From Sphyrna mokarran (lineage: Eukaryota), in NCBI GenBank assembly GCA_024679065.1, contig JAGIQG010000009.1:107384001-107448000 (forward strand): DNA of 64,000 nt, written 5' to 3'. Shown piece by piece: positions 8,966 to 64,000 of the stretch. Numbering within the stretch: position 1 is the first letter of the stretch; every line of letters begins with the position of its first letter. The notes beneath the pieces were generated by a model. It saw nothing but the letters and a program-made list of their open reading frames with translations. It searched no databases and was not told the DNA's origin. The translations under genes and the position numbers were made by a program.

Positions 8966-10146
8966 ATTGTCGTGGCTAAACTTAGACGCACTGGCAATTA
9001 AATCTATTTCTTTTTATTTTATTGCGATGATTATTAGGTGCACTCTAATTGTGGCATTGATTCCTTGCATAATAACAAAGTGAACACCAAAGAGAAGAAG
9101 ACAAGGAAAATGAACAATAACACAGATCATATCGAATATGCTACCATCAGCTGCAGCTATGGGAAGAAACTTGAAATGCTGCAATATCCAGCTCTTCACA
9201 AACCCTGATTCTCACTGAGTCGTATCTAGCGTACTGATTACCTTATTCTCTATTTCACTATCAATAATTAAGCTTGTTTAACGTTAACTGTGAATGTTTG
9301 TGAACATGCAGCTGTTCCTAAATTCCCAATTGTTTAGTATATCAACCTTGAAATTATTCAACTTGTAGAGACGCTGTGCCTGTTCAAGAATCCAATCCTT
9401 GTTCTCATGATTACATTGTACATTTTACCAGCACCGGGAAACAGAACAAGGAAAGGAAGGAGATCCACTGGGTCACTACTTGAAGAAAATGTATAAATCA
9501 GTCAGTGAAAATATCATTACGTGAATATTCCCGCTAATTTCATGAGAAAGGTTATTTGCTGTCTCCCTTGGTATTTGATTCAAGCAATCTTCCCAATGTA
9601 ATTTCATTATTGACAACCAATAGCAATCTAAGTATTTTCCCAAAATGTAATTATATGAGTACAGTTAACTGCTTTTAAGTACTTAGTCATTTTAACTCTG
9701 TGCTGCAAATCATAGTGTTCCATTAAATCCTGCAAATTTTGTGCTTGATATTTTCTCAGATCTATTGTCTCGAGTCACGCATGTAAGGGGAGTAGGATTC
9801 AGTATGATTTGGAGTAAATAGTTTCCCATACTATATCAAAAGGGAAAAGGGGAAAGTAGTTGATATTATAAACTGTCGAGTGTGTCCGATAGTGAATGTT
9901 TTATGTTTTTATAAAATTTTATGTTTTTATATAATTCTGTAAACCTGTAGTTCTATTGCTTGCACCTGAGTGGCCCTATATTCTTTAATAGTCATTAGTA
10001 TTCAAAATATCAGTCCATCTCAAATCATTTTCAATAAATTATATTTTATGAGAGGCGTTTTGACATACTATAATATGAGCTCCATGAATGGTAGAGTTGA
10101 GCTGAATAACCTACTTCTATTCCTATGGTCTTATGGTCTTACCATA

Positions 10147-28344: not shown

Positions 28345-28405
28345 ATGGCGACAGAACGGTGGGCAATGACCTCTCTATTTCTCTTGATTTCAAGTTGTCT
28401 AGAGG
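28345..28405 (+). CDS. Gene B signal-peptide (leader) exon
   Basis: acaATGG Kozak context, encodes MATERWAMTSLFLLISSCLE, then G|gtgagt, a strong phase-1 donor matching the phase-1 V exon. Confidence 0.8.
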
Positions 28406-31400
28406 GTGAGTGAATAATCGCGCCCTGATTGTTTAAATATTGTAAGAAAACCGTGGGAGACAACATTTCTTTCGCTGCACTATTAACCCAAAATCTCAGC
28501 TATTGTTCTGGGGACCCGGGTTCAAATCCCGTCGCGGCAGGTGATGGAATTTGAATTCAATAATAATAACTGGAATTAAGAATCTATTGGGGGGCAGCAC
28601 GGCGGCACAATATTTAGCACTGCTGCCTTACAGCGTCAGGGACCTGGGTTCAATTCTGGGTCACTGTTTGTGTGGAGTTTGCACATTCTCCCCGTGTCTG
28701 CATGGGTTTCATTCAGGTGCTCCGGTTTCCTCCCACACTCCAAAGGTGTGCGGATTAGGTTGATTGCTAAATTCACCCTCGTGTCAGAGGATTAGCAGGA
28801 TAAATATGTGGGGTTATGGGAATAGGATATGGGTGGGATTGTAATTGGTGCAGACTGAATGTCCTCCTTTTGCACTGTAGAGATTTTATGATGACCATGA
28901 AACCATTGGCAATTGTCGCGGAAAAGGCATCTGGTTCTCTAATGTCCTTTAAGGAAGGATACCTACCGTCCTTGCCTTTTCTGGTCTACATATGCCTCCA
29001 GAGCCACAGTAATGTGATTGACTCTCAACTGCCCTCGGATACCTGGAGTTGGGCAATAAATGCTGGCCAGCCAGAGATGACAATGTTCCATGAATAAGTA
29101 AAACAATTAGACAGACCAAGTAAATGATCGCATACATTTCTAAAACACGAGTAAAGCATACCTTAATACACTGCTACATTGGTCTAAGGGAAGGTAGCGA
29201 TAAAGACCAACATTTGCTGTCCACGTTTATAATTACACAGACCCACCAACTTATACTTAGCATCAAGTTCCCCTTTTAACTTGTGTTTTGCAAAGCATTA
29301 CGAGGTACTAACCGAATTCGGAAGTGTGGTAGCAATAATTCAAATGAACATCTGAATGACTTGGTATTTTTCATCCACTCACATTATAAAAACTATATTG
29401 ATATATTTGGAATGCTTTTTGTAGGAAATTATTAAACCGCGTGCTTACATTTCTTTGTCTTTTTTTACGTCTATTATCTAAAGAAATGCCTTGCTTAGTT
29501 ATGTACCTGGAACTAATAACACACAATTGTTAGTGAGATTTTTTTTTAGCGATTCTGTAGTCTCTGCAAAGAATGCATCCAATTTAGTAACTGTCGAGTC
29601 ATTTAGACCATGAATAGTCCCGTGTATTTTTGATAATCCTTAAACCTACTGTTGTTTCTTCCTCACACCTAAGACATTTATTCCTTCCACTACAATTGCC
29701 AGTAAAATATTCCAACTTGTTGCGACCTATAGGGAATAAATTCCTACAGCATTTCCGATTTTTTGTGCTGTTTGTAATTTGTGAATACCCCAAAATCCTG
29801 TCACAGACTGACTCCAGTTAAATAAAAACAGATTACTGGATTCTGGAATCTGAAACCAAAAGAGAAAATGCTGGAAAATCTCAGCCGGTCTGGCAGCATC
29901 TGTAATCGTCTTTGACAAATGGTCACCTCGACTCGAACCATCAACTCTTTTCTCTCCTTTCTGCCAGAGCTGCTAAGATTTTCCAGCGTTTTCTCTTTCG
30001 GTTACAGACTGACTCCAGTTTGCGCAATCTATTATAATTTTAGATCATTGGACCATATGTTCTTTTAGATATTCCTGTCAAAGAAATCCCAGTTGTCAAC
30101 AGTTCCTCAAAGTTCATTCCCTTCAATTCAGGGTTTAACCGTGCAATCCATACCTCTTCTGACATACCTGCAATACCCCTGATACAATCTCACCAGGCAA
30201 GCTATGGTTTTCAAATCGCCAATCTTGAGTATTTGGTTTTGCTTCCTGCAATGCAGCCAAGTTGACAAATACTTTACACAAATAATTGCTGCAAATGGTA
30301 CAATTAATCAGAAGTTACAAAACTACTCTTTCTAATAATCTTTTGCTCTAACATTTGTGTTTAATATCAAGATATTTTTAAATAAAAGATTTGCAAAGCA
30401 TTGCCAGTGATACTATCGAGTTATATCTAACCTCAGATGCCTGGTGTTAACAACTCAAATCAACTTTTGGGTCCAATTCTCCCGGTAATTCATGTTATTT
30501 CTTCTTTTCAAAATGAGCCAATACGTTGATAGAATTGTGTTGCTAGAAAACAAACATGCAACCAAGTGTGCGGTTTAGAACAGTAACTGTAATACTTTGT
30601 TGCTTATCGCAGAAGCATACCTTCTGTCAAAAATCGTATTGTCGCAAATTTAGGGTCGGGATCAGAGAGATATGTGCATTTCTTGTTCATTGTGTAAACA
30701 ATGTCCATAGTATTTCTTTATTATTGCTACACGCAGTAATAATCGGTAAGTTTCAACTCAATCCAAACATGAGTCATTGTTTTTAAGGATTACTTTACAG
30801 GATATGGGCGAGGCTGGCTAGGCCAACATATATTGCCCACCATAGTTGCCCTTGCCAAGGTAACGGTGAACTGTGTTCTTGAACCACTGCAACCCATGAG
30901 CAGACTTATAGTGGTGTTAGGGAGGGAGTTTTAGGATTTTGACTAAGCGACAGTGAAGGAATAGCAATGTATTAGCAAGTCAGGGTGATGATCGGCAGTT
31001 GATGATGTTGCTATGTATCTACTGTCCCTGTCATTCTCGATGTTTGGACCCTGCTGCCCGAAGAACACTGATGAGTTCAGGCAGTGCAAATTGTTAATGG
31101 TACACAAGCTGCCACTATTCCTTGGTGGCGGAACGGTTCGAATGATTGTGGAATGCATAGCAGTCAAACAATTTGCTTTGTTTTGGATGGCGCCAAAACA
31201 TGTTGGACGTGCAGTCATTTAAACAAGTAGAGAGTATCACATCCCTTGGACCTTGTGGATGGTGTACCAGATTTTGGGCACTCAGGAGGTGAATTAATCG
31301 ACCTTGGGGTCCTAGCATTTGACCTGCTCTTGTAGCTAAAGTATTTATATCGCTACTCTAGTTCAGTTTCTGGTCAACGGTAATCCTCACGATGCTGATT

Positions 31401-34400
31401 AAAAATAATCCAGTGAATTAGCACATCCTATATATTCATAGATAGCTGTTCCTTTACTCTTAAGAAAAGGGATGACACCCAATAGGGTTAACGCCTTAGA
31501 TTGTAATATGTAAATCTAGAAAGTAAAAACAATTCAATTATTTATGGACATGGTATGGAAAAAGATGTTTCCTTGATGGAAGCTCAACTCAGCACATATA
31601 TGAAAAAACATTCAATCTTCAACGAAAAATCCAGTTTTTGTTTTCAGGAGAAACAAAAGGCTTCACTTCAATATGTGAGCAGCTATTCAAAAAGGTTCAC
31701 AAACGAACATATTTTCTTGCATTAATCAATTTCTTGATGGTTGCTTGACACAGGAACTATGTTCGGCCAGGTCTCTGAATGTACTTGGGCAAAAGTTTTG
31801 TTTCCCTGAATTCATGATGTGGTCAGTTTTCAATGATTAGTTGTGCACTGTAGTACTCTATGACTGTTCACATTCAATACTATGGGCCACGTTTGTCCAA
31901 TGGGGTTAGGTGGACACGTCAGAGCCTTTCATTCGGCGGTGCCGACTCGATGGGCCTTTTCTGTGATTCTTCGAGTTTATTGTTCCATTAACGCAAGGTG
32001 TTAATAGCAAATGCTAGTATAGAATCATAGAATCCTACAATGTAGAAGGAGGCCATTCGGCCTATCGAGTCAGCAGAGGCCACAGTATGCATTTACCCTA
32101 GATAATCCCCCTGACACTAAGGGACAATTTAGTATGACCAATCCACCGACCATGCACATTTTTGGACTCTGGGAGGAAATCAGAGCATCCGGAGGAAACC
32201 CACGCAGGCACGGAGAGAATGTGCAAACTCCTCGTAAACAGTGACCCAAGCAGGGAATCAAGCCCATTTTCCTGGTATTATGAGGCAGCAGTGCTACCAC
32301 TGTGTCACTATGCCACCCATTTCGAATCATATTCTGGCTCTAAGTAATAACGAAACATATTTATTATAATACCCTGTTTCTGAAATCAGATATTTTAGAT
32401 AACTGTCTGAGGATAAGTGCATTAAATTGATTTATTATTTTGTAATATCAATTCAACAATACAAAACTAAAATGGTGCTTTTGATTTTCTCTTCATTGTT
32501 TTTTATTTGTACCTGTTATTCCCTCTTTCCTTTACCAATACTTTCTCTCTTGAATTTTTTAATCATATATATCATAACTTATTTCCAAACTAATGATAAA
32601 CTGTTGAAGTAATGCAGAAGGAAATCTGAGATTGCATGGTTTGCAATTCAAGACTTCCCAAAGTTTTAGGTTTTATTTATTAGTTTATTTACTCCTGTCA
32701 CAAGTAGGCTCACATTAACACTGCAATGATGAGAATCACCTAGTCGCCACACCCAGGGCCAGTTCGAGTACACTGAGGAAGAATTTAGCACCTGCAGTGC
32801 AAATAACCAGCACATCTTTTGGACTATGGGAGGAAAAGAACTTCATGGCTAACGAATGCCGAATGAACCATAATCTTTTTTGCTCAATAGGCCAATGTGC
32901 CAAAGGTTCTGTTCATATCGAGGTTCTTAATTAGGACGAGATCAATTCTTTGCAAGAGTTTTTTTCTATTGAGCATCAAAGTTTCTCTACTGCATCTCGA
33001 GGAGAAAAACATTCCCTTATTTACTGCATCAATATTTTCTTAGAATGATATACGCTTACGACTTGCAATTATTTGTCACAGGCGAAGATGCCACAACTAA
33101 ACAAAACGGTATTGGCTCAACATGCGTGATACACTGTTCTTCGTTAATTACTCCTTGTCTTTCTTTGTAAACCCCTAGGTACGGAGACCGCCACTTCCCC
33201 CGTAGTGCAAAGCCCCGGTTCAGTTCATATATTCCAAGGTGGAAGCGTGATTTTGAATTGCAGTTTTCGGTTAGATGGACTGGGAACTTACAGCTGGAGG
33301 AGAGATGACAGCCCCATAGACTTTGAGTCTCCGAAGTACAAGAACAGAATTGTCAAAGCGGACCAGCATGCTTTCAATTCGAGGAAGGATGCATCCATTC
33401 TCATTAAGAATATGACAGAATGCGAGTCCGGGATATATTACTGTGAGATTGAAATCTTGGGGAGACCAAAACAATCAGGCAATGGAACCTCGGTGACCGT
33501 ACAGCGTAAGGAAATGTAACCAGAAAGCTTTGCAATGCTGTTCGCACAGTTAAAATTCTCCCCCATTCTTTCCACCATACTGTTGCTACTCTGTTTTTGT
33601 GAAACTCGTTTTTGGTTTCAGAATGGTTAAAAGGTTTAGTTCTTTCATTGCGCCCAAGTGTGGTTCTACTTCATTCTTTCCCCATGCCCATATTCTTTCT
33701 ATGCCTCTGTTTCCTCTCCACCTACCTGTCTTTCTATCCATTTCGAGCTTTATGTCCCTTTGTGTCGTTGCTCTCTTCGCTATTGTTCTTTCGGAACGAA
33801 TTTATGAAGTAGCAACTTATGTGTTATTTCTTTCAACAGATGTTTGCGACAAACCAGTCGCTGTAAATAACTTGCTGCTTGACTGGATATGGATCGCAGT
33901 GGCAGGGGGCGTCACCTTGCTTATTATCCTGGTACTGCTGATAGTGATAATATTCCTTGCTCGACGAAACAAAGGTAATTGAAGTTTTGAAAATAGTAGC
34001 CATAATTTGGCATTTATTACTATCATGCTTCATTCTAGCAAAATATCGTTACAATGAGACATTTTTATAGCAAACGTCAAGTGAATAATCAATACATTTT
34101 ACAGTAAACAAGGGCATGCATGTACCTGAAGCTTTTCATACTTGAAGTATATGGTTCCTTCTGGTCTGCGAATTATAATAAAGTATGGTGCTTAGTCACT
34201 ACAGAAAGCACAAGAAATAAACTTTACTCGATCTATGGGTATAGAAACATTCATTACATTTCTTGCATGCTGTGCCCAAAGATAGATCCTTGCCTCACTG
34301 TCTGCTGATGCTTCATCATGAAACATTTCCTTGTCAGTTCGATGTCTATCAGTGAACTTTGCTATTGTCTTCCACTCTCAGGGCTAGGATGAAGAGACAA

Positions 34401-37174
34401 TTCCCAAGACTATCTCAGTTGAGAGTGAACAGAATCCGCGTTGTTGGTGTTATAAAAACATAGAAAATGGGAGCAAGATAAGGCAAATTGGCTCTTCGAG
34501 CCTGCTCTGTCATTTATCACTACCATGGCCGATCGTCCAAGTCAATAGCCCAATCCTGCTTTCTCCCCATAACATGTGATCCTATTCGCTCCAAATGCTA
34601 TGTCTAGTTGCCTCTTGAATATATTCTATATTTTGTCATCAACTACTTTCTGTGGTATTGAATTCCACAGGTTCACCACTCATTGGATGAAGACACGTCT
34701 CCATACCTCCGTCCTAAATTGCGTACTCTGTATCCCCAGATTGGGACCGCTGGTTTTGGACACAACCAACATCGGAAATATCCTCCCTGCATCGACCCTG
34801 TCTGGTCCTGTTAGAATTTTATCAGTCTCTCTGAGGTTTTTCCCTCATTTGTCTGAATTCCAGCGAAAACAATCCTAACCGAGTCAATATCTCCTCATAC
34901 ATCAATCTCCCCATCACTGGAATTAGTCTAGTAAACTTTCGCAATACTTCCTCGAGAGCAAGAGCATCTTTTCTTAGAAAAGGAGACCAAATTTGCACAT
35001 AATATTTTTAGTGTGGCCACGCCAAGTCCCCGTATAATTGCAACAACACATCCCCTCTGCTGTATTTGAAACCTTCCGCCACATGCTATTTGCCTTCTTT
35101 ATCACCTGCTGCACCTGCATGCTTACATTCAGCGACTGATGCACAAGGCTCATACTGAAGCACACTATTTAGCTTCCGAAGCTAAAGACTCCGCCTGAGA
35201 ACTTATACTAGTTAGGAAAGATTAAGGGGGCCGGCATGTGTTTCCAATAGAAAAGGAAGATTCGCAGCCACCCCAATTTTCAAAATTATGAGGGACGGTC
35301 GCATGATAGTAACACCACTAGACTACTAATCAGAGGCCCAGATTAAAGCTTTCGTTCCAATTCCCCACGTGGCTGATGGTAGAAATTAAATTATATCAAT
35401 AAATCTGCAATATAAAGCTAGTCTCAGTACTGTTGACCACTAAATTATCACCGATTTTTCATAAAAGCCCTTTGGTTCATTCATGTCTCTGGAGATGTAA
35501 GTTTGCCGTCGATAAATGTCTCCAAAGCAACATGGTTGATCCTCAACTCTTATCGAAGATGGCCGAGCAGGCATCTCAATTTAAGGCCAATTTGGGGGTG
35601 GGTAACAAAAGTCAGCGACGTTCACGTTACATGAAAGGATTAAGAAGCAAACAGGAGTGTGCAAGTGTTTAACAAGTACAAATTTAGAGACTTAGCATAG
35701 GCTATTTATGAGGCAGACCAGAACTACAGTCCATCAACATAACCTACCCATTCATAAATTCAGTCGTGAATTCGTGTTAACTCGCTTTAGCTGGAAAGCG
35801 GTTAGAATATGAAACTTGGCCAAAAACTTAGTTAAGACCACTAGTGCAGAGACATTTGAAAGGATACTAGAGAAACACTTGAGAAACAAAAACAAGTGTA
35901 AGAACCCGTTGATGGGGTTACATGAAGAAGTGTTTGAAGAGTTTCAAAAAGAACTGCATGAAGCAGTGGAGTCGAATGGTCTGTTCATGTGCTGTAACTA
36001 GCTTCTAATTTTCAAATTAGTGTGGTTTGGAAAAGTATTATTTCAAAGGATAGCACGAAGGGCATTTATTACTCATTCGTAATAACCATCTTCAGAGGCC
36101 AATTAAGAGCCCACCATATTGGGTCTGGAGTCACGTATAAGACAGGTCGGTTTAAGATGGCAGATTTTCTTCAGGAAAATGTATTAATAAACCAAAGGGG
36201 GATTCCTTTTGCACAAGTCGATTACTGTTTTTATGGTTCCCTAAACTAAGGCTAGCTTTTAACTCCAGACTTAGTAATTCATTTTATTATTCACCAGCCA
36301 CTGAGACACCATGGTGAATTTCATTTTCCCCTGAACATTAGCTTGAATCTGTCGATCGCTCGTCTAGGCTATTGCCACCACGTCCTGAATCAGCATTTAT
36401 TTTTCATAAAACGTGAATTGCAGGGCAATAGGTCAATACATCTCAATACTCTAATGTGTTGCCAAGAACTTAGTAACAGGGAAAAATTAAAGGAAGTGAC
36501 ATTAAGAAGTAGGCAAAAATAGGTTAGGAACAGCAGATATTGAATGTGAGTAACTTCACAATGTTAATTCCCCATTCTTGCTACTATAGCACATTTATAG
36601 TAAGTCCATCTGAGCAGAGTTACACGATTTCGATTTTTTTGAGATTGCATTGTGGTCATTGTTTTGGATATCGATTGTCAATATTAATAACAGAATTAAT
36701 CACAATTATATTTAATTATTTTCTTATTTACAGCTTACGCTTTACTTGTCAGGTAAGACAATCAATATTGCGTTGCCAATTTGTAATGCCATAATGACTT
36801 CTTGCAAATGTTTGCACACGACGAAAAATTACAACACATCTGCTAAATATCTTTTTGCTCTACAGAGAATGTTCTTCTTTTGATTGTGCAAAAGAACCAG
36901 GTAAGTGATCGCCATCTTTATTTGAGCAAGATGTTAGCAGTTGCTCATATTAATATAACAAATCTGCAGGCTGTACGTTTGTACCTGCATGTGTGTATAT
37001 GTGTGTAAGTCTGTGTATGCATGCAAGTAAATGTGAGTTTGTGTATGAATGCGTGTATGTGCGGGCGAGTGTGTTCATATGTGTATGTTTGTTTATGTGT
37101 CTGTGCATGTTGTGTATGTTTCTGTTCGTGTGTGAGGGCGTGTATGTGTCTCTGTTTTTGTGTGTGTGTGCGTA

Positions 37175-37213
<39 letters not shown>

Positions 37214-40200
37214 CTATGCGTGTGTTGCTTCAAATCAAACAAACCACTGGGTTAAAAAGCACAAAAATAAAGAGCATGCAAATACGCAAATAAAAGTTTA
37301 TTTATGCATCATTGTGTCTGAAATAGATCAACCTTCATTGATCTATCGATTATTGTTAGTAAACAAAGTAAGGATTTGTCTTTTTCCGAGCAGCATGGAA
37401 TATCTATTCCTTTTAATCGGGAAATAAACAAATTGGAATTTGATCACATGTCAAATAAAGTTTGAAACTTCGAAGAGGTGGCCTTTCAATAGGGAGATGA
37501 TTCAGAAAAGGTTATTTTATTTTAACTTAGCAATCGCTGACTGAGCTCAGGGTGATTCTGAGGTTTCTGGGCGGCACGGTGGCACAGTGGTTAGTACTGC
37601 TGCTTCGCAGCTGCAGGGTCTTCGGTTCGATTCTCGGCTTGGGTCACTGTTTGTATGGAGTTTGCACATTCTCCTCGTGTCTGCGTGTGTTTGCTCCAGG
37701 CACTCCCGTTTCCTCCCACAGTCCAAAGATGTGCGGATTAGGTTGATTGGAAATTGTCCCTTAGTGTCCAAGCGTATGGAGGTTAGAGGGATTAGTGGGT
37801 ATGATATGTAAGGATGTGAGGGTAGGGCCTCTGTGGGATTATGTTCAGTGTAGACTCGAAGGGTCTTTTTCTGCACTGTAGAGTTCTATGGTTCTTTCCA
37901 TGATCTGTAAAGGAATCAGAATTGGAAAGCTTTGCTTAATATAAGCTTGTATTTAACATCAGAATAAAATGCATTTTGAAATGTCATTTCCATTCAGGTT
38001 CATTTACACACTTTCTCAACGTTGTGCTAACAATTTGGGGCCGTGAAGCTCAATATCAGTTTCAGAGGCACCGTGAAAGCAAACTGTTCTCACTTTGTAC
38101 AGGCAGAAATTTATACATTTGAGAAGTGGTGAAGTGTAAGTTACATTCGCGGTATTTATACTGCAAGCCTTTATCTCAAAACGGATACAAGCAAACACGT
38201 TTTACTGAAAGCAGAAAGCTTCCTTTAGTTTTTTTCTTTAGAGAAATACTCTTAAATGAAAATGCAGAGACATCAATCTTAGCAACAACATCCACGCTCT
38301 CAAAACGTTGCTATTTATATAACGTTCAAGACTTCAAGCCTTATTTTCTCTCAAACATTTTGAAACATGAATTCCTTCTCATGGTCTGGTCAACTATTGT
38401 TGCCAGATACTCCTGCGGAATGCGAAGCAACATCAGCATAGTTTAAGTAAGATCATAAGAACATGATAAATGTGAGCAGGAGTAGACCATTACTGTCCTT
38501 AAGCCTCTTCCATCATTCAATGTGATCTGGCTGATCTGCTGGCTGAACCACATGTGCCCTTGGAATGAACATCTCCTGTATTAGAAGTTGCTGAATTGAC
38601 CAGAAACTATTTCGGTCAATTTCAGCTTCTAAAGCAACTCTAGAATTAATCTATATAATGAACAATGTATGCATATTCGTATACAGAAAATATTATTTTT
38701 TAAGTCAGTGTATACTGATAGGAAAGACAGTGAAAAAAACACTTGAATTGCTGTTAGTGCCAACAACGGAGGCTGCAAAAAGTTAAACCCATCCATTTCT
38801 GTAGACCACTACAACACAAAACGACAGTGAAGAGATGTAGGTTTAAATAAAACAATACGCGTAAAGTACGCAATAAAAAGAAAACATGTCCGTCTGTTCG
38901 TCTTCCCAAAACAAGTACAAATTCCAAAATGTAGAACGCTTTTTTATTCTTCCCGTATTTACGAACACGAATTGATGCAGAATTATTTTGCTGTCTTTGT
39001 TTGCCCGAAAGGGTTAATTATCCATTCTTCCTCTCGGCATGCTCACTCTTTACAGCTTTTGTACACCTGACTAAGCCACTGCTAGCCAGCTATTTTCCTT
39101 TCTGTGTCTGTAATCCATTCCCTTCTACTCCTATTTTTAACAATTTCTCTTTTTTAAACTTCTTGGATATAATTATAGCCAACGACGACATGTAACCCCG
39201 CTAGTACAAAATAAAGCATCGATTTGTTCCAGACTACATTATTCCCCGTTGAAGATATTCCATACTGGTCACAATAACTTGGTCACATCCGTTCCGCTTT
39301 TTTTGCACAGGCATGGGCAGCAGTTCACATTTATTCGCGGCCAAAATATCCACATCGCCAGTTATTCTTTTAACCAGTTCTTCTTCCCCCATCAGAGGCA
39401 AGAGATGATTTCTTTTAATTTTGTAATTTTAATTAGCATTTTGTGAGATGAGTTCAGCAAGAGTTTTTCAATGACGTTTCCTCGGCCTAGTCATAGAATC
39501 GCTACAGCCATATAGTCCCTATAGTGCAGAACGAGGTCACGTGGCTCAATGTGTCTCCACACATCTCTCCGAAAGAGCATTTTACCCACCTCTCCCCACC
39601 AATTCTCGTAATACTGCACATTACCACTGTTAATTTACCTAACATCTTTGGACACTAAGAGGCAATTTCGCATGAACAATCCACTTAACTAGCACATCCT
39701 TAGACTGGGGGGTAAACTGGAGGATTAGGAGGAAACCCACGCAGACACGGGGAGAACGTACCATGTGTAACCCAAGGCTGGAATCGAAGCCGGGTCCGTG
39801 GCATTGTGGGACAGCAGTGCTTACCAGCTCGGATTTGGGTGACTGCCTGTGCAGAGTTTGCTCATTCTGAGCTTGACTGCATGGGTTTACTCCGGGTGCT
39901 CCGGTTGCCTTCCACACTCCAATAACATGCAGGTGATGCTCTCATTCGGCCTGCTGAGACACAATATCGCATAATTAACCTCCAGCCCTTTCTAATTATA
40001 TTGTTTCATGCTCGCCACTAATTATTGACAAAAAGCTTTGGTAGTTCACGTAAATGGAACCAGAATGACAGATGCATCTTTGTTTAAACTGAATTAAAGT
40101 GCATTTAATCAGCAGTGATGAAACTTGTTTCAAGAAAACTCGACTGATGTGACAAATGGACTAGTATTCTCTGGATTGAATGCATTTTAAGAGCGTTATT

Positions 40201-43200
40201 TCTTTACGTCTGTTTATGGTCGTCTTGTGTTGATAATCAATTAGTCCAGGAGCGATTTTACGGCCTCGCTCGGGCGAGACGGACATTTTCATTGTGGGGC
40301 CTTCGCCCACGCGGATTTCATGGCGGGCGAGGTAATACAGTCCTGAGTGTTTTGTAGAATGATAAGGATTTGTCCCTTCGTAGCCTCCATTGTACTAATA
40401 GCAATTCAAGCGTTTGATCAGTGTATTTTCCATAAGCACATGCTCACTTTATGAATTGGTTTCTCTGTATACTGATATAAATAGTTTTTAATAAAATAGC
40501 TACATTTTGTCTTTCCGTTTAAAGTTGAAATTAACCAAACGAATTTCTGATCAACTCAACAAATTTTGATCATTGTGGTTGGCCACTACAGCGGATCAGC
40601 CAAAAAAATCTAGAGTTTCACCAGCAGCTGAGGGGCAAGGTCAGCCAAATTGCGTTCCAACACATTGAACAGTGAAGCATCTTAAATATTAACTAGCTAC
40701 AACACACAAACAAAAAGCCAACAAAGTCGTACACATACTAAATCTGAGTCTCACTTGTCTTCATATCCAAGGCCAGAGTATCTTACAACTTCAAAAGTAC
40801 TTAATTGATTTTAAAATCTCTTTGGAGATCCAGAGGTTTGCAAAACTTTTCTTTCTTCTTTAAAGTTTACTTTAGACGCTGAGCAGGCATATCTCTAAAC
40901 ATGAGTGCACATAGAACTTCAACAGGCAAAATAGTTCGCAAGTGCAACATTACTGAAAAGCTACTTGCTGGAACACATGCGAATGTGCGACTCGACATTG
41001 AAAATATTTATTTGTCCAAAACATCAGACAAATTTAGGTTTGATTTTGATTTGATTTGATTTATTAATGTCCCATGTATTGCGATGAAGTAAAAGAAATG
41101 TTTCTTGCGCACTATGCAGACAAAGCATGCCATTCATAGAGAAGGAAACAGGTGTTACAGTCATAACTAGGTTGTAGAGAAAGATCAGCTTAATGCAAGT
41201 TAGGTCCATTCATAAGTCTGAGGGCAGCAGGGAAGGTGTCCTTCAGTCGGTTAGTAAGTGACCTCAGACTTTCGCATCTTTTTCCCGATGGAAGAAGGCG
41301 AGAGAGAGAATGTCTGGGGTGCATACTATCCTTAATTATGCTGGCTCCTTGGCGAGGCAGTGGGAAGTATAGACAGAGTCAATGGATTGGAAGCTTGTTT
41401 GTGTGATGTAATGAGCTACATCTATGGTGAGATGAATTGTCTTTAAAATATGGATTAATCATGTTCTCCCTTTGCCTGAAACAGAAGTGCCTCGGAGAAA
41501 GAAAGTGCGGGAAGTGCGAGATCGTGCTAAACATCAGGTAAATGTGTGTCTGACTATTTTTTAAGTTTATTTATTAGTCACAAGTAAGGCTGTGAACTTA
41601 CTGTGAAATTCTCCTAGTCGTCTCACTCTGATGCCTGTTCTAACCAGCACATCTTTCAGAGGAAACCCAAGCCCTCAAAGGAAACCCACGAGACATGGGG
41701 AGTACGTGCAAACAGAAAGTGATCCAAACTGGGAATTGAACCTGGGTCCTGGCGCTGTGAGGCAGTAATGCTAACCACAGTACTCTATCCACTCCAAAAT
41801 ATGACGAGGTCCGATCACACCTGAAATATATATCTTCACAGGCACATTTTTGTGTATTGGGATTACATAGAACACAGAACATAGAGTTATACAGCACAGT
41901 ACAGGTCCTTCGCCCTCAATGTTGTTCCCAGCTATGTCCAACCCAAGATCAAGCTATCCCTCTCTCTATCATTCTGGTGTGCTCCATGTGCCTATCCAAT
42001 AACCGCTTGAAAGTTCCTAAACTGTCCCACTCCACTACCACAGCAGGCAGTGTATTCCACAGCCTAACCACTCTCTGAGTGAAGAATCTACCTCGTACAT
42101 CCCCACTCTATCTCCCACCATGAACCTTATAGTTATGCCACCTAGCAACCGCTACATCCACGTGAAGAAATAGTCTCTGAACATCCATTCAAATAGCACG
42201 AGGAATCACGGGCTTAGGGTGGGGGGGGGGGGGTAAAGTATAATTTGGATGCTAGAGAGAGTTTATTCCACATAGAGGGTGGTGGGGGTATGGAACGCGC
42301 TGCCAAGTAAAGTGGTGGAGGCAGGCACTCTGGAGTTATTTAAAAGATACTTAGATGGGCACATGAATAGAATGGGAATGGAGGGATATAGAAAACTGAT
42401 TTAAAATAGGGATCATGAGCCTTGGGAGTCTCTGGGGAGTGTGTAAACGAGTCCCTAGGAAGTGTGTAAATAGTCGATGATATTGATGTATTTGTTTTAT
42501 CCTACAGGTACTTTCGTCCGCCTTGTTGTCTAACAACAGGCATACACGCGATGGGTCGTGAGAGGGCTGCTCTTGGATTTTTTTCGAGAGTATCCTCGTG
42601 CTTCACGTCGTCAGTGTACGCTTGACCTGGACCATTTGATGGGCAACACGACAGCTCAGTGACTATCGCTGTGCTGTGCAGATTTGGGCCTGTATCTGTG
42701 GGAATTTGTGCATCCTTCCCGTGCTTGAGTGGATTTTCTCCGGGTGCTCCGGTTTCCTCCCACATCCCAGAGATGTGCTCTTAAGCTGATTGGCAGAACA
42801 AATTCTCCGTAAATTGCCTCAAATTTGGTTTCAATGCATAGATCTATAACCATAGACAGAGATCACGGGTAAAAGTGGGAATATCGAGGTGGCGGCTTGG
42901 GCTCGTGGGGCCGAAGGGCTTGTTTCCCGTGCTGTTTTGTTCTTTGTTCTTTGTTATTCTATCTATCCGCCTCATCATCTTATAAACCTCTATTCAGTCG
43001 CCTCTCATCCTCGTCCGCTCTAAAGGGAAAAGCTCCAGCTCCCTCAACCTTTCCTCATAAGACCGACCCTCCAAACCAGGCAGCATCCCGAGAAATCTCC
43101 TCTGCACTCTCTCTAATGCTTCCACATCCTTCTCATAGTAAGGTGATCATAACTGAACACAATATTCCAAATGTGGTCTCACCAACGTTCGGTATACTTG

Positions 43201-44933
43201 CAGCATAACCTCTCGGATCTTAAACTCAACCCCCTGTTAATAAACGTTAACACACTATAAGCCTTCTTTACTACTCTATCCACTTGAATGGCAACCTTTA
43301 GACATCTGTGCATATGAACTCCAAGATCTCTCTGTTCCTCCACATTCCTCAGAACCTTGCCATTGACCACGTAAACCACATTCAAGTTTGTCCTAACAAA
43401 ATGAATCACCTGGCACTTATCAAGATTAAACTACATTTGCTATTTTTCGATCCAGCTCTTCAGGCTATCAATGACCCTTTGCAGCCTGCACGAATCTTTC
43501 ACCTCATCCACTACTCCACCAATCCTACTGTCATCAGCAAATTTGCCAACCCACCCTTCAGCCCCCTCTTCTACGTCATTGATAAAAATCACAAATAACA
43601 AAGGTCCCAGCACTGATCCCTGTGGTACACCGCTAGTGACTGGCCTCCAGTCTGAAATTTTTCTTTCCACCATCACCCTCTATCTTCTTTGAGACAGCCA
43701 GTTACTTATCCAATCGGTCAAATTTCCTTCTACCCCACACCTCCCTACCTTCTTCATGCGCCTACATGGGGAACCTTGTCAAACGCCTTTCTAAAATCCA
43801 TCTTTATGACATTAACTACTCTACTTCTGTCTACACACTTAGTTCCCTCCTCAAAGAATTCAATCAAATCTGGGAGGCAGGCACTTTTCAAAACAGTGCT
43901 GACTATCCCGGATTAAACTGCATCTTTCCAAATGGTCGTAAATCCTAACTTTCAGGACCTTTTCCATTAACTTACCGACCACCGAAGTAAAACTAACTGG
44001 CCTATAATTACGAGGGTTATTCCTACTTCCTTTCTTGAAGAGAGGAACAACATTCACCACTCTCCAGTCCTCTGGCACTATCCCCGTGGACAGTGAGGAC
44101 TCAAAGACCAAAGCTAAAGGCTCCGCAATCTCACCTCTTGCCTCCCAAAGTATCCTAGGATGTATCCCATTTGGCCTAGGGGACTTATTGACCCTTAGGT
44201 TTTTCAACATTGCTAATACATCTTCCCTCAGAACATGTATCTCCTCTATCCTTTCAGACTGTATCACGCACTCATTCTCAAAACATGGCCCCTCTCCTTA
44301 GTGAACACTGAAGAAAAGAATGATGACCTGTTGCTCTGAGACGGTGTCCTCTGGTCCCAGAATCTGCCACAAAAGCAGACACTTCTCAACATCTACCCTG
44401 TTAAACAACATGAGAATCGTTTACATTGTCTCTCATTTTTCTAAACTCCATTGAACACAGACCCTACTATTTAGTTTATTCTCGAAAGAAAATCCCCCCA
44501 TTGCGGGGATCAACCTAATGAACTTCTTCTGAACAGCCTCCAAAACACATATATCTTTTCTGAGATAAAAGACAAAAGCTGTTAAGTTAATCCCGGTAGA
44601 AGGAATTCTGGATGGCAAAACAATTTAGCGTTTTGTCTCTAAGGGCTAAGATAGAAACTGTTTCCACAACAATTGTTGCTCTTCAGGAACTTGGTAAACA
44701 ATGATACTCTGTATATCTACTTTTCTTTCTACCTTTCTTTGCAGAAATGCGGTTGAATTATGTGAATGAAATGTAATATTAGCTCTGTAATATAATCTAG
44801 CGTTATGGTAATATGATTTTTACCTGACTGTTGCTCCTTCACTTTAAACGTTTTTTCTTACTTTGCTCAGACGGGGACTGTTGCTATGATTTTGGCGCCT
44901 TGTCTATCTGTAACTCCATACAACGTCCTATAA
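28345..44933 (+). CDS. Gene B: NKp30/NCR3-like single Ig V-set type I membrane receptor. Exons 28345-28405, (33082-33108 optional), 33179-33505, 33840-33974, 36734-36752, 36866-36900, 41485-41537; terminal exon at 44745 or 44871
   Basis: Continuous reading frame across canonical splice sites: MATERWAMTSLFLLISSCLE-G(EDATTKQNG)TETATSPVVQSPGSVHIFQGGSVILNCSF...WRRD...ESGIYYCEIEILGRPKQSGNGTSVTVQ-HVCDKPVAVNNLLLDWIWIAVAGGVTLLIILVLLIVIIFLARRNK-AYALLV-RECSSFDCAKEP-EVPRRKKVREVRDRAKHQ-(KCG* or TGTVAMILAPCLSVTPYNVL*). The NKp30 resemblance is judged from remembered motifs, not from a search. Confidence 0.85.
28470..29100 (+). mobile_element. Second tRNA-SINE family with a V-SINE nested at about 28590-28890. 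Other copies at about 3050-3390(+), 35300-35640(+), 36060-36390(-), 50450-50800(-), 60255-60690(+)
   Basis: gggttcaaatccc B box, then atgaccatgaaacc, gaaggaaatctgcc and gggcaataaatgctggcc. Confidence 0.75.
29820..30003. mobile_element. Penelope-derived inverted-repeat element
   Basis: Arms of about 48 bp (gaaaatgctggaaaatctcagc / gctaagattttccagcgttttc), flanked by the 17-bp direct repeat ACAGACTGACTCCAGTT. Confidence 0.65.
30790..31400 (-). mobile_element. CR1-group LINE 3' fragment (same family as 12056-12275)
   Basis: Similar degenerate ORF; its 3' end (gttggcctagccagcctcgcccatatcc) is shared with the second SINE family. Confidence 0.6.
33082..33108 (+). CDS. Gene B possible 27-nt frame-preserving micro-exon (G-EDATTKQN)
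   Basis: tttgtcacag|...aacg|gtattg, phase 1-1. Creates an N-G-T sequon across the junction. The downstream intron is only 70 nt. Confidence 0.5.
33179..33505 (+). CDS. Gene B Ig V-set exon (V and J-like G strand in one exon)
   Basis: Polypyrimidine tract plus cccctag| acceptor and CAG C|gtaagg donor. B-strand Cys (LNCSF), C-strand Trp (SWRRD), F-strand GIYYC and G-strand GNGTSVTV are all present. Confidence 0.95.
33840..33974 (+). CDS. Gene B stalk and transmembrane exon
   Basis: tttcaacag| acceptor and AAAG|gtaatt donor. Encodes the uncharged TM WIWIAVAGGVTLLIILVLLIVIIFLA followed by the RRNK stop-transfer. Confidence 0.93.
34455..35150 (-). mobile_element. CR1 LINE 3' fragment
   Basis: VHQSLNVSMQVQQVIKKAN on the minus strand; CR1 UTR. 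Confidence 0.85.
36990..37225. repeat. (TG)n microsatellite with degenerate flank
   Basis: Seen directly. Confidence 0.95.
37570..37895 (+). mobile_element. Full-length V-SINE (HE1-like)
   Basis: ggcggcacggtggcacagtggttag head, ggttcgattc B box, V-domain, CR1 tail. Confidence 0.9.
41040..41420 (-). mobile_element. Rex1/Babar LINE 3' fragment
   Basis: Homologous to 750-1190 (LLPSGKRCESL); (TCAAA)n tail. Confidence 0.8.
41865..44312 (-). mobile_element. CR1 LINE, interrupted by the 42191-42955 insertion
   Basis: NYRPVSFTSVVGK, GVPQGSVLGPLLFVIFIND and KFADDS motifs. Confidence 0.92.
42191..42955 (+). mobile_element. Composite CR1 with V-domain 3' UTR (copy 3), nested in an older minus-strand CR1
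   Basis: ORF2 end (VVGVWNALPSKVVEAGTL), UTR and tail. ATTC duplicated at 42187-42190 and 42956-42959; removing the insert restores the host CR1. Confidence 0.88.
44325..44590 (-). mobile_element. CR1 fragment
   Basis: YLRKDICVLEAVQKKFIRLIP. Confidence 0.75.
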
Positions 44934-44974
44934 CTGCGGTCTGCATCCCTGTTTTATTAACAGCAAGGACTTGG

Positions 44975-46498
44975 AAGTTTTAAAGAAAACAAGAGAGGAG
45001 ATTGCAGAGCCTCTGGCTCTGATCTTCAGGTCCTCGTTGGTTACGGGTGTGGTTCCGGAGGACTGGAGGATAGCGAATGTAGTCCCATTGTTTAAGAAGG
45101 GGAAGAGAGACCTTCCTGGGAATTATAGGCCAGTGAGTCTTACTTCTGTTGTGGGCAAGGTATTGGAGAGAATTATTAGGGATAGGATTTATAGTTATTT
45201 AGAGAGAAATGAATTGATTGGGGATAGTCAGCATGGTTTCGTGAAGGGTAGGTCATGCCTTACTAACCTCATTGAGTTTTTTGAGAAAGTGACCAAAGAG
45301 GTGGATGGGGGTAAGGCGGTTGATGTAGTATATATGGACTTTAGTAAGGCGTTTGATAAGGTGGCCCATGGAAGACTTCTACAGAAAATGCAGATGTGTG
45401 GAATAGAGGGTGATTTAGCTAATTGGATTAGAAATTGGCTGGCAGATAGAAGACAGAGGGTGGTGGTTGATGGGAGATATTCATCGTGGATTTCGGTGAC
45501 GAGTGGTGTGCCTCAGGGGTCTGTTTTGGGGCCCCTGCTGTTTGTAATTTTTATAAATGATCTGGATGAGGGTATTGAGGGATGGATCAGTAAATTTGCA
45601 GATGATACTAAAGTTGGTGGTGTGGTAGATAGTGAAGAGGGGTGTTTTAGTTTACAGAGTGACTTGGACAAGTTGCAGAGCTGGGCCGAGAGGTGGCAAA
45701 TGGAGTTTAATGTGGAAAAGTGTGAGGTAATGCACTTTGGCAGGAACAATAAATGTGTAGAGTATAGGGCTAATGGTAGGGCTCTTAATAGTGTTGAGGA
45801 ACAGAAGGATCTTGGTGTATGTGTCAATAGATCCCTGAAAGTAGGCAGTCAAGTGGATAAAGTTGTTAAGAAGGCATATGGAGTCTTAGCTTTTATTGGT
45901 AGGGGGATTGAATTTAGGAGCCGCAGCATCATGTTGCAACTGTACAAAACTCTAGTGCGGCCGCACTTGGAGTATTGTGTGCAGTTCTGGTCCCCACATT
46001 ATAAGAAAGATGTGGAGGCATTGGAGAGGGTACAGAGGAGGTTTACCAGGATGTTGCCTGGTATGGAGGGCAGGTCCTATGAAGAGAGGTTGAAGGATTT
46101 GAGGTTGTTTTCGTTAGAAAGGAGGCGGCTAAGAGGGGATCTTATTGAAGCATATAAGATGATTAGAGGTTTAGATAGGGTGGACAGTGATAGCCTTTTT
46201 CCTAGGATGGAGAAAGCTAGCACGAGGGGACACAGCTTTAAATTAAGGGGTATGAGTTATAGGACGGATATCAGAGGTAGGTTCTTTACTCAAAGAGTGA
46301 TTAGGGAGTGGAATGCCCTGCCTGCAGCTGTTGTAGATGCGCCAAGTTTGGTGGCGTTTAAGAGGTTAATTGATAAGTATATGGAAGAGAAGGGAATGGT
46401 TTAGTTTGGAGGGGCATTGCTTTTTATTTTGGTCGGCACAACATCGAAGGCCGAAGGGCCTGTTCTGTGCTGTATTGTTCTATGTTCTATGTTCTATG
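44975..46498 (+). mobile_element. Young 5'-truncated CR1 LINE with uninterrupted reverse-transcriptase ORF (about 477 aa)
   Basis: NYRPVSLTSVVGK, YMDFSKAFDKV, GVPQGSVLGPLLF and KFADDTK motifs; (GTTCTAT)n tail; no endonuclease domain. Confidence 0.97.
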
Positions 46499-47299
46499 AA
46501 TGTGCCATCGAAAATCTTTCATTTTTCACTCAAGCTACGCAAGATAAAATAATAATAAAGGGAACAGTAATTTATACTCATTAGAAGAGTGTGCTTATTG
46601 GTTGGCAGATGTACGCTGGTTACCAACAAGTGATGCATAAAATTAAACGCATTAAAATGCATTTCTTTTAACCAAAGTAATGCTTGTGTCCTTTCTCCAA
46701 AAACAGGATGATAGTTACCTTAACTGTCACCATAATGAAGCCAACGCGAAGCAAAACCGGCCGGCGTTGCCAAGGCGGAACATACAGTAGATCTTCTCAT
46801 TATTTGATTATTGTCGTGTCTGTATTTCACCATCCGGCCTTATCAAAATAACAGTGAGATAAGAAAAACTACTTTCAACTTTTCAGTTTTTTGTGACAGT
46901 TAGTTGTTTATTAATGCACAATGTACGCTGTATGAAATTTCAAATATATGATTTTGTTTCTTTTTCAAATAGAATTTCTTTGAAGTTGCTGTTCCCATGG
47001 CAACTTATATACTATTATTATTCATTATTATTAATATAAGAGTTACAAAATGAATTATGGTATGTTGCTGTATCTGATTAGTGTAAAATTTATTGCCCAT
47101 CCGCTATTTGCCCTCAAGAAAGTGATGATGAGCTGCCTTCTTGAACTCTTATAGTCCCTGAGCTGTTGGGACACACAGAGTGCTGGGAAGGAGGGAGTTC
47201 CATGATTGTCACTCAGTCATCAAAGCGGGAATTGAACTTAGGTCCCTCGAGCTGTGAGGCACTTTGCTAACCATTGTGCCATCGATGTTCACTTCTTTC

Positions 47300-56244: not shown

Positions 56245-57365
56245 TTCTACAGAAAATGCAGATGTGTGGAATAGAGGGTGATTTAGCTAATTGGATTAGG
56301 AATTGGCTGGCAGATAGAAGACAGAGGGTGGGGGTTGATGGGAGATATTCATCGTGGAGTTCGGTGACGAGTGGTGTGCCTCAGGGGTCTGTTTTGGGCC
56401 CCTGCTGTTTGTAATTTTTATAAATGATCTGGATGAGGGTATTGAGGGATGGATCAGTAAATTTGCAGATGATACTAAAGTTGGTGGTGTGGTAGATAGT
56501 GAAGAGGGGTGTTTTAGTTTACAGAGTGACTTGGACAAGTTGCAGAGCTGGGACGAGAGGTGGCAAATGGAGTTTAATGTGGAAAAGTGTGAGGTAATGC
56601 ACTTTGGCAGGAACAATAACTGTGTAGAGTATAGGGCTAATGGTAGGGCTCTTAATAGTGTTGAGGAACAGAAGGATCTTGGTGTATGTGTCAATAGATC
56701 CCTGAAAGTAGGCAGTCAAGTGGATAAAGTTGTTACGAAGGCATATGGAGTCTTAGCTTTTATTGGTAGGGGGATTGAATTTAGGAGCCGCAGCATCATG
56801 TTGCAACTGTACAAAACTCTAGTGCGGCCGCACTTGGAGTATTGTGTGCAGTTCTGGTCGCCACATTATAAGAAAGATGTGGAGGCATTGGAGAGGGTAC
56901 AGAGGAGGTTTACCAGGATGTTGCCTGGTATGGAGGGCAGGTCCTATGAAGAGAGGTTGAAGGATTTGAGGTTGTTTTCGTTAGAAAGGAGGCGGCTAAG
57001 AGGGGATCTTATTGAAGCATATAAGATGATTAGAGGTTTAGATAGGGTGGACAGTGATAGCCTTTTTCCTAGGATGGAGAAAGCTAGCACGAGGGGACAC
57101 AGCTTTAAATTAAGGGGTATGAGTTATAGGACGGATATCAGAGGTAGGTTCTTTACTCAAAGAGTGATTAGGGAGTGGAATGCCCTGCCTGCAGCTGTTG
57201 TAGATGCGCCAAGTTTGGTGGCGTTTAAGAGGTTATTTGATAAGTATATGGAAGAGAAGGGAATGGTTTAGTTTGGAGGGGCATTGCTTTTTATTTTGGT
57301 CGGCACAACATCGAAGGCCGAAGGGCCTTTTCTGCGCTGTAATGTTCTATGTTCTATGTTCTATG
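56245..57365 (+). mobile_element. Young CR1 LINE, near-identical to 45377-46498
   Basis: Same sequence with a few substitutions and one 1-nt deletion near 56395; same tail. Confidence 0.97.
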
Positions 57366-63386: not shown

Positions 63387-63629
63387 TCATTGGCGTGCCG
63401 GGGCCCGAACCACCCCGTACACTACCGGTTCTTCCATCTGGTTTCGAGGTCTCACTGGCGCCTGATTCTTGTTCTTATCACGACTTTGCCTCACTACCGC
63501 GTACACAACCTCGTCTTCTCGTTGAGGCGGGGGTTCCACCTCATGATTGTTCGTGCGATTCCTCGGTCGCTGTGTTTTGGGTTTGGCGATGCGCAGGTCA
63601 GCATAAATAACATTGTTCGACGTGTCTCC
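63387..63629 (-). CDS. Gene C terminal exon: inhibitory-receptor cytoplasmic tail with three ITIMs (remainder of gene probably mostly beyond the window)
   Basis: Long polypyrimidine tract then tttgag|GGA GAC (the rarer GAG acceptor). Encodes GDTSNNVIYADLRIAK...EDEVVYAVVRQ...EEPVVYGVVRAPARQ*. VIYADL, VVYAVV and VVYGVV fit V/I/L/SxYxxL/V. Confidence 0.85.
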   Translation of the reverse strand, partial: GDTSNNVIYADLRIAKPKTQRPRNRTNNHEVEPPPQREDEVVYAVVRQSRDKNKNQAPVRPRNQMEEPVVYGVVRAPARQ

Positions 63630-64000
63630 CTCAAATGAAACAAAATTTAAGAAGAAAGAAACGGAAATGTTAACACTGCAGTTGTTCAGCATAATAGTGC
63701 CATTACTGACCTAATGTAAAAACGCAGGAAGATGTGTTGCGAAGTTGTGCTTAGAGGTTAGAAGTGCAATCACATAGAGTGGCAAGAAAAATAAAATGTA
63801 AAGGGCAAACAACAGGGTTACCAAGGCAACAGACTTTCAGGCATTTGGATCTTTTTGAACTCAGCCAATCAATTTGAATTAGGCAATTAGAAAGCAACAA
63901 CCTATTAAATTTAAATCTGATGATTTTGGCAATTTCGGACCTATCCCTTTGTGAGGGATATTGATGTGACTTCACGGGTATAAAAGAAAAGAGCAGCGGG

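Follow-up and report, generated by a model that had tools for sequence, protein, structure and literature searches.

A germline VJ receptor with neither transmembrane charge nor ITIM in an MHC-linked NCR3-like cluster of Sphyrna mokarran

How does a receptor with an NKp30-like ligand-binding domain signal when its transmembrane (TM) segment carries no charged residue? This question is raised by a gene in a stretch of 64,000 nucleotides of the Sphyrna mokarran genome (contig JAGIQG010000009.1, positions 107,384,001 to 107,448,000 of the forward strand; hereafter the window), for which an initial annotation had proposed an NKp30-type variable (V) domain wired to a co-receptor-like output. Based on the present data, we favor, with a probability of roughly 60%, the view that the gene encodes a non-rearranging variable-joining (VJ) receptor of the shark NCR3/NKp30 family linked to the major histocompatibility complex (MHC), lacking both a TM charge and an inhibitory motif of the immunoreceptor tyrosine-based type (ITIM), and that its product is likely an adaptor-independent modulatory receptor of lymphocytes.

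Gene structure

Annotated shark proteins were aligned back to the window to obtain an exon model, which is given in window positions on the + strand. The gene spans positions 28345-46790, and its seven exons encode 237 amino acids (aa) followed by a stop codon. The predicted splicing is consistent with canonical splice sites, matching phases and shark orthologues. Among 13 sequencing runs, no RNA run was listed as containing the gene, and one run presumed to be RNA contained 0.43 of its sequence words. The gene is intact, and what was observed in the sequence is real.

28345..28405, + strand: exon 1, encoding the signal peptide (aa 1-20) from the ATG on, with a phase-1 donor; 90% identity with the Mustelus orthologue
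33179..33505, + strand: exon 2, entire V-set domain and germline-joined J-like G strand (aa 21-129); motifs, Pfam, AlphaFold and fold match
33840..33974, + strand: exon 3, uncharged TM segment of 26 residues with (A/G)xxxG, preceded by a short stalk with Cys132 and followed by basic stop-transfer residues
36734..36752, + strand: exon 4, micro-exon of 19 nt carrying the juxtamembrane YxxL (YALL); orthologue alignment
36866..36900, + strand: exon 5, micro-exon of 35 nt with the latter half of the conserved juxtamembrane segment; orthologue alignment
41485..41537, + strand: exon 6, basic cytoplasmic linker
46707..46790, + strand: exon 7, acidic-Tyr site with His/Cys, then the stop codon after a proline-basic PALPRR end; tblastn, 79% identity to Mustelus

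Compared with an annotated protein of Mustelus asterias, the spliced model shows 87% identity (237 aa), and compared with those of three other sharks 65-74%. As had been noticed before, six NKp30-type V motifs are present; all share one + strand frame (33253-33501) within a single exon with AG/GT ends, and the V domain matches the Pfam V-set with an E-value of 5e-11. The domain has the canonical Cys48, Trp60 and Cys109, an additional Cys102 and three N-glycosylation sequons. The J-like GxGT strand lies inside the same exon as the V motifs, and positions 33001-33900 contain no perfect heptamer or nonamer of a recombination signal sequence, in agreement with the germline joining originally proposed. 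The VJ pattern did not occur once in 100 shuffles of the window. The TM segment is, as first read, free of charge over a run of 26 residues (aa 145-170). The previously assigned gene end at 41537 had to be moved, because the stop codon is located in the seventh exon; the cytoplasmic tail comprises 67 residues from four exons rather than about 39. Its two tyrosines have Lys and Asp at position -2. A Pfam search of the tail matched no family, and an Atlas search with the TM segment plus tail gave no match at 0.9 or above.

A frameshift suspected by eye in the last exon was ruled out, the frame being intact on the orthologue alignment, and an extra exon candidate near 40592-40639 with good splice sites was excluded as it matched no orthologue. 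Two reverse-transcriptase fragments of long interspersed elements, which we take to be CR1-like, are found at 44914-46498 and 56245-57365 and are 98.9% identical over 1122 bases; one of them sits in intron 6, and this identity points to a recent insertion or duplication.

Family assignment

Human NKp30 was the best single-domain match in the PDB, both for the V exon (E 8e-8) and for a profile of 13 orthologues (E 4e-11). Only multi-Ig chains (DCC, contactin, Robo and one more) ranked above it, by summing weak domain scores, and CD8, CD28/CTLA4 and PD-1 were absent among the sequence matches listed. As a control, a CD28H-like shark V domain with an EIPPP motif retrieved CTLA-4 in the identical search. 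An AlphaFold model of the V domain alone, built with 75 sequences, was confident (predicted local distance difference test, pLDDT, 94.9). NKp30 structures occupied Foldseek ranks 1-4 for this model, with a template-modelling score (TM-score) of 0.80 to human NKp30. NKp30 also came first among 48,161 chains in VIA-align (Z 15.1, root-mean-square deviation 2.6, 103 aligned), followed by VNAR (Z 14.1), with CD79b (Z 13.1) among the runners-up. The predicted structure leads to the same family as the sequence.

Against a profile made from 78 of 95 mammalian NCR3 sequences, the V domain scored 44 bits, above the nurse-shark NCR3 protein QTT61901 (36.5), the CD28H-like V domain (29.6) and SIRP-like rows (11-21 bits). 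It ranked 21st of the 29 V domains of its own genome, the best of which reached 83 bits; because 20 of these 29 score higher, the gene is a paralog and not an orthologue of NKp30. The TM segment with its basic cap aligns with that of QTT61901, and two orthologues bear the source name NCR3-like. Moreover, the gene has the architecture expected of the NCR3 family, in that one exon, which does not rearrange, holds a lone V-set domain together with its J-like G strand. We therefore assign the gene to the NCR3/NKp30 family with high confidence, on the grounds of best hits, fold, motif and synteny, and not of phylogeny. The V-domain tree contained 72 of 89 rows after removal of 17 near-duplicate or redundant ones, did not include curated CD8, CD79 or TMIGD2 sequences, and resolved shallow groups only: the orthologue clade of 14 rows (support 96/92) and its sister relation to a gene at 107.259 Mb (support 98/83). 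The initial annotation had held that its proposal would fall if another V-set family proved closer; the best hits give no sign of this, and the tree does not decide the matter.

The NCR3-like cluster

The contig of the window accounted for 26 of the 33 V matches in the whole genome, and these fell into two clusters, one of 14 (96.3-96.9 Mb) and one of 12 (107.3-107.7 Mb). It also carries every one of the 53 MHC class I matches, at 85.8-95.8 Mb, the nearest about 11.6 Mb from the gene; a search for MHC class II beta was blank, and so were its controls. We found 18 VJ exons within 544 kb around the window, of which 16 were detected by their pattern, one was added by tblastn and one contains a stop, and the neighbor genes have nurse-shark orthologues whose proteins were deposited as NCR3. 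A TM exon was searched within 9 kb of each VJ exon and could be called for 17 of the 18: 10 are uncharged, 6 have a central Arg/Lys, and 1 is ambiguous as it runs into a short interspersed element (SINE). For the neighbors, tail exons were assigned according to their position and strand rather than from transcripts. On this basis, six of the 10 genes with an uncharged TM segment have tails of the ITIM type or of the related switch-motif (ITSM) type, for one gene the tail is degenerate, for another no tail was found, and two, the present gene and its sister at 107.259 Mb, lack an ITIM. The cluster is a paired-receptor cluster.

The uncharged TM segment had been presented as unusual, yet most TM segments of this cluster lack a charge (10/17), and the feature is already on record for nurse-shark NCR3, which makes it an ordinary feature of little consequence in itself. 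The TM segment of QTT61901.1, an entry deposited under NCR3, is uncharged, and this protein has a 69-aa tail and an ITIM; QTT61904.1 has a TM Lys; both have orthologues in the hammerhead cluster. The present gene shares with the nurse-shark NCR3 genes (MT914154-914161) the germline VJ exon, the single V-TM-tail build and the location in a cluster on the MHC chromosome, and with QTT61901.1 the uncharged TM segment and the long tail (67 aa), but it differs from them in having no ITIM and in forming a clade of its own. Kinlein reportedly described, in 2021, eight divergent MHC-linked NCR3 subtypes of the nurse shark together with thymic expression. The accessible part of one publication cites eight nurse-shark NCR3 accessions (PMC12227049), and NKp30 is treated as a known MHC-linked VJ gene in the excerpts available from another (PMC10751288). 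In our literature searches, whose coverage stopped short of the main shark NCR3 papers and supplements, no description of the present subtype was found, and it may still be described there.

Human NKp30 resembles the present protein in its fold, VJ exon and MHC linkage, whereas its TM segment contains an Arg and is followed by a short tail. The basic TM residue that characterizes NKp30 proper is thus missing here, unlike in the six cluster neighbors with a central Arg/Lys. Single VJ domains, uncharged TM segments and long tails are also combined in NCR3-like receptors from lungfish, axolotl, newt and sturgeon, which are paired receptors of the XMIV type; these, however, bear canonical ITIMs.

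Several related genes surround the one under study. Upstream on the + strand lies an NCR3-family gene orthologous to QTT61901, with its V exon just left of the window, its TM exon at 1632-1739 and its last exon at 9038-9205 (ITIM IEYATI). The last exon of a downstream NCR3-family gene is at 63390-63640 on the - strand and contains the ITIM-type motifs VIYADL, VVYAVV and VVYGVV, the V and TM exons being right of the window. Further along, seven related V genes, one with a stop in the V domain, are arrayed in tandem (G000:C1548:107459000-107584000); they mix uncharged-TM, mostly ITIM-tailed, and TM-Arg forms and represent a paired-receptor expansion. A duplicated pair at G000:C1548:107622000-107643400 has an NKp30-like GSVTW strand (PDB E 3e-11); in one copy the TM candidate extends into a SINE, and in the other a TM exon was not found. 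The second NCR3-like cluster (G000:C1548:96260000-96875000), about 0.4 Mb from the MHC class I genes, has closely spaced tandem V exons and holds the V domains that score highest against mammalian NCR3. Outside the MHC contig, a V exon with EIPPP and GxG (L029, G000:C1:160536500-160536823) has CTLA-4 as its best PDB match and is likely a CD28H or CD28HL gene, and three related germline VJ exons (L026, L028 and L030; G000:C993, 54.2-55.0 Mb) have no clear PDB family.

Conservation among sharks and rays

An orthologue profile was searched against 8000 candidates and matched 19 proteins, including those of 9 named sharks and 7 named rays and 2 additional isoforms. No chimaera or bony vertebrate was among these 19 matches, and neither was a nurse-shark entry, although one might be concealed within a 90% cluster. 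TM and tail features were compared in 18 orthologue rows, 15 of which have the whole TM segment; none of these 15 has a TM charge, and 14 of them have (A/G)xxxG. A canonical ITIM, (S/I/V/L)xYxx(I/V/L), is absent from all 18 rows, and the juxtamembrane YxxL is present in every one. Averaged over the 35 shark-ray pairs of 7 x 5 rows, from which one TM-truncated isoform was excluded, identity amounts to 91.6% in the juxtamembrane segment of 21 aa, 62.9% in the TM segment, 46.1% in the V domain and 17.9% in the stalk; for the distal tail it is 46.1% (30 pairs).

The additional V-domain cysteine is at position 102 in 7/7 sharks and at position 65 in 6/6 ray rows, and the stalk Cys132 is kept in 12 of 13 rows. 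In a V domain, both of these positions are found at the end proximal to the membrane. This location suggests that the additional cysteine and Cys132 form an intrachain rather than an interchain bond. The sister gene (L004, G000:C1548:107258000-107271100), which likewise has an uncharged TM segment and no ITIM, shares the additional cysteines in V domain and stalk and has a juxtamembrane segment of its own that is kept in catshark and sawfish.

Possible signaling output and ligand

What the receptor would bind, which partner it would have and what sign its signal would take, we infer from the features described above. NKp30 pairs with CD3zeta by TM charge, according to the available portion of PMC12272517. 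Since the present protein has no basic TM residue, coupling to CD3zeta/FcRgamma appears improbable, as was originally supposed, and CD3zeta, FcRgamma and DAP12 would very probably not be recruited. The juxtamembrane stretch is likely to bind a partner. There is, in our estimate, an even chance that the output would run through this near-invariant segment, which would continue the TM helix and, together with (A/G)xxxG, hold a dimer partner or a cytoplasmic protein; the distal Tyr and the proline-basic motifs would serve as weaker SH2/SH3 docking sites. As to the ligand, 11 NKp30 contact residues for B7-H6 are tabulated in the accessible part of PMC3135353 (Table II), and five of them are identical here (G51, F85, E111, L113 and G114), the top score by one point among the 29 V domains of this genome. 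Binding through an NKp30-type groove is plausible on these residues, and the V domain might in this way bind a B7-family ligand, which we put forward tentatively.

A number of observations weigh against this interpretation. Only 5 of the 18 orthologue rows contain PxxPxR, 12 of 14 have the distal Tyr, and the juxtamembrane conservation could be inflated by splicing constraints on the micro-exons. Continuity of the helix from the TM into the juxtamembrane segment (aa 141-183) is predicted by a poor AlphaFold model of the full-length Mustelus orthologue (5 sequences, mean pLDDT 43). The B7-H6 contacts drop to 1-5 of 11 in rays, which makes a conserved B7-H6-like ligand doubtful. As for the family itself, identity to human NKp30 is only 27-29%, and NKp30 leads the next VIA-align match narrowly, by about 1 Z unit. 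In the tree, the CD28H-like shark V domain nests among NCR3 rows, the deep forks not being resolved. Three alternative groupings gave p values of 0.23, 0.095 and 0.31 in approximately unbiased tests on 36 rows, and none was rejected; the tests reject neither a grouping with the CD28H-like V domain nor one with mammalian NCR3.

The main rival explanation, which we regard as unlikely, is that of an inhibitory or ligand-removing receptor, in which YxxL acts as an extended ITIM-like or, as in CTLA-4, an AP-2 endocytosis signal and damps the adjacent activating paralogs with TM Arg/Lys. The invariance of YxxL would fit this explanation, as would the ITIM/ITSM-type tail exons in 6 of the 10 uncharged-TM genes; a non-canonical LAG-3 motif, (F/Y)xxL(D/E), is used from sharks to humans according to the part of PMC10768021 at hand. 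However, the present YxxL matches neither the ITIM nor the LAG-3 consensus because Lys is at -2 and Val at +4. The Tyr is only 6 residues from the membrane, in a helix predicted by the low-confidence model, and is replaced by Cys in the sister gene. Conservation over about 20 residues also goes far beyond the need of a 4-residue motif.

A co-receptor like CD4/CD8 or a co-stimulator like CD28H, recruiting LCK through a zinc clasp or GRB2/SH3 adaptors, corresponds to the output originally proposed and is improbable. The resemblance to shark CD4 (PMC10768021, in its available part) lies in an amphipathic helix next to the membrane and in a tail that is long and conserved, and exon 7 of this species has CxH, YxN and a PxxPxR end. 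The Cx(C/H) clasp for LCK is, in the same excerpts, conserved in CD4/CD8, whereas here CxH is found in this species only, which weakens that reading; at that place CxH and YxN are missing in all 14 orthologue rows, which mostly have L-H-C-H, and there is but a single Ig domain. CD28H/TMIGD2 and CD28HL1-3 are similar in their single V domain with GxG, uncharged TM segment, and Tyr and proline motifs in the tail. Those genes have, in the accessible text of PMC11599192, an E-I-P motif in complementarity-determining region 3, a YxNx tail and other synteny blocks, whereas the present gene has E-I-L-G, has YxN in this species only and is located in the NCR3 cluster.

A convergent V-set gene of the CD28H/TMIGD2, CD79, MPZL or SIRP type within the cluster is highly improbable: it could draw on the open deep nodes, on the source name 'myelin protein zero-like 1' of one orthologue and on the Atlas, where only generic V-set clusters were found for the V domain, but NKp30 came first in four comparisons (two PDB sequence searches, Foldseek and VIA-align), and the CTLA-4 control, the mammalian profile scores and the TM alignment with QTT61901 also speak against it.

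Implications

A bolder extension of the adaptor-independent reading, which we consider a long shot, is that the two single-copy sister genes represent a third NKp30-family class in sharks and rays, neither adaptor-coupled nor ITIM-bearing, and pair as a TM/juxtamembrane heterodimer. On an alignment reading, the heptad core positions, Y-L-C-F here and C-L-F-Y in the sister, look complementary. If true, the pair would constitute a two-chain VJ receptor that is germline-encoded on the MHC chromosome and bears on the origin of paired antigen-receptor chains.

The interest of the gene lies in a subtype that is conserved across sharks and rays within a fast-evolving paired-receptor cluster, and in a cytoplasmic segment that is twice as conserved as the ligand-binding domain. 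This segment provides a testable handle on signaling by a germline VJ receptor that uses neither an adaptor with an immunoreceptor tyrosine-based activation motif nor an ITIM.

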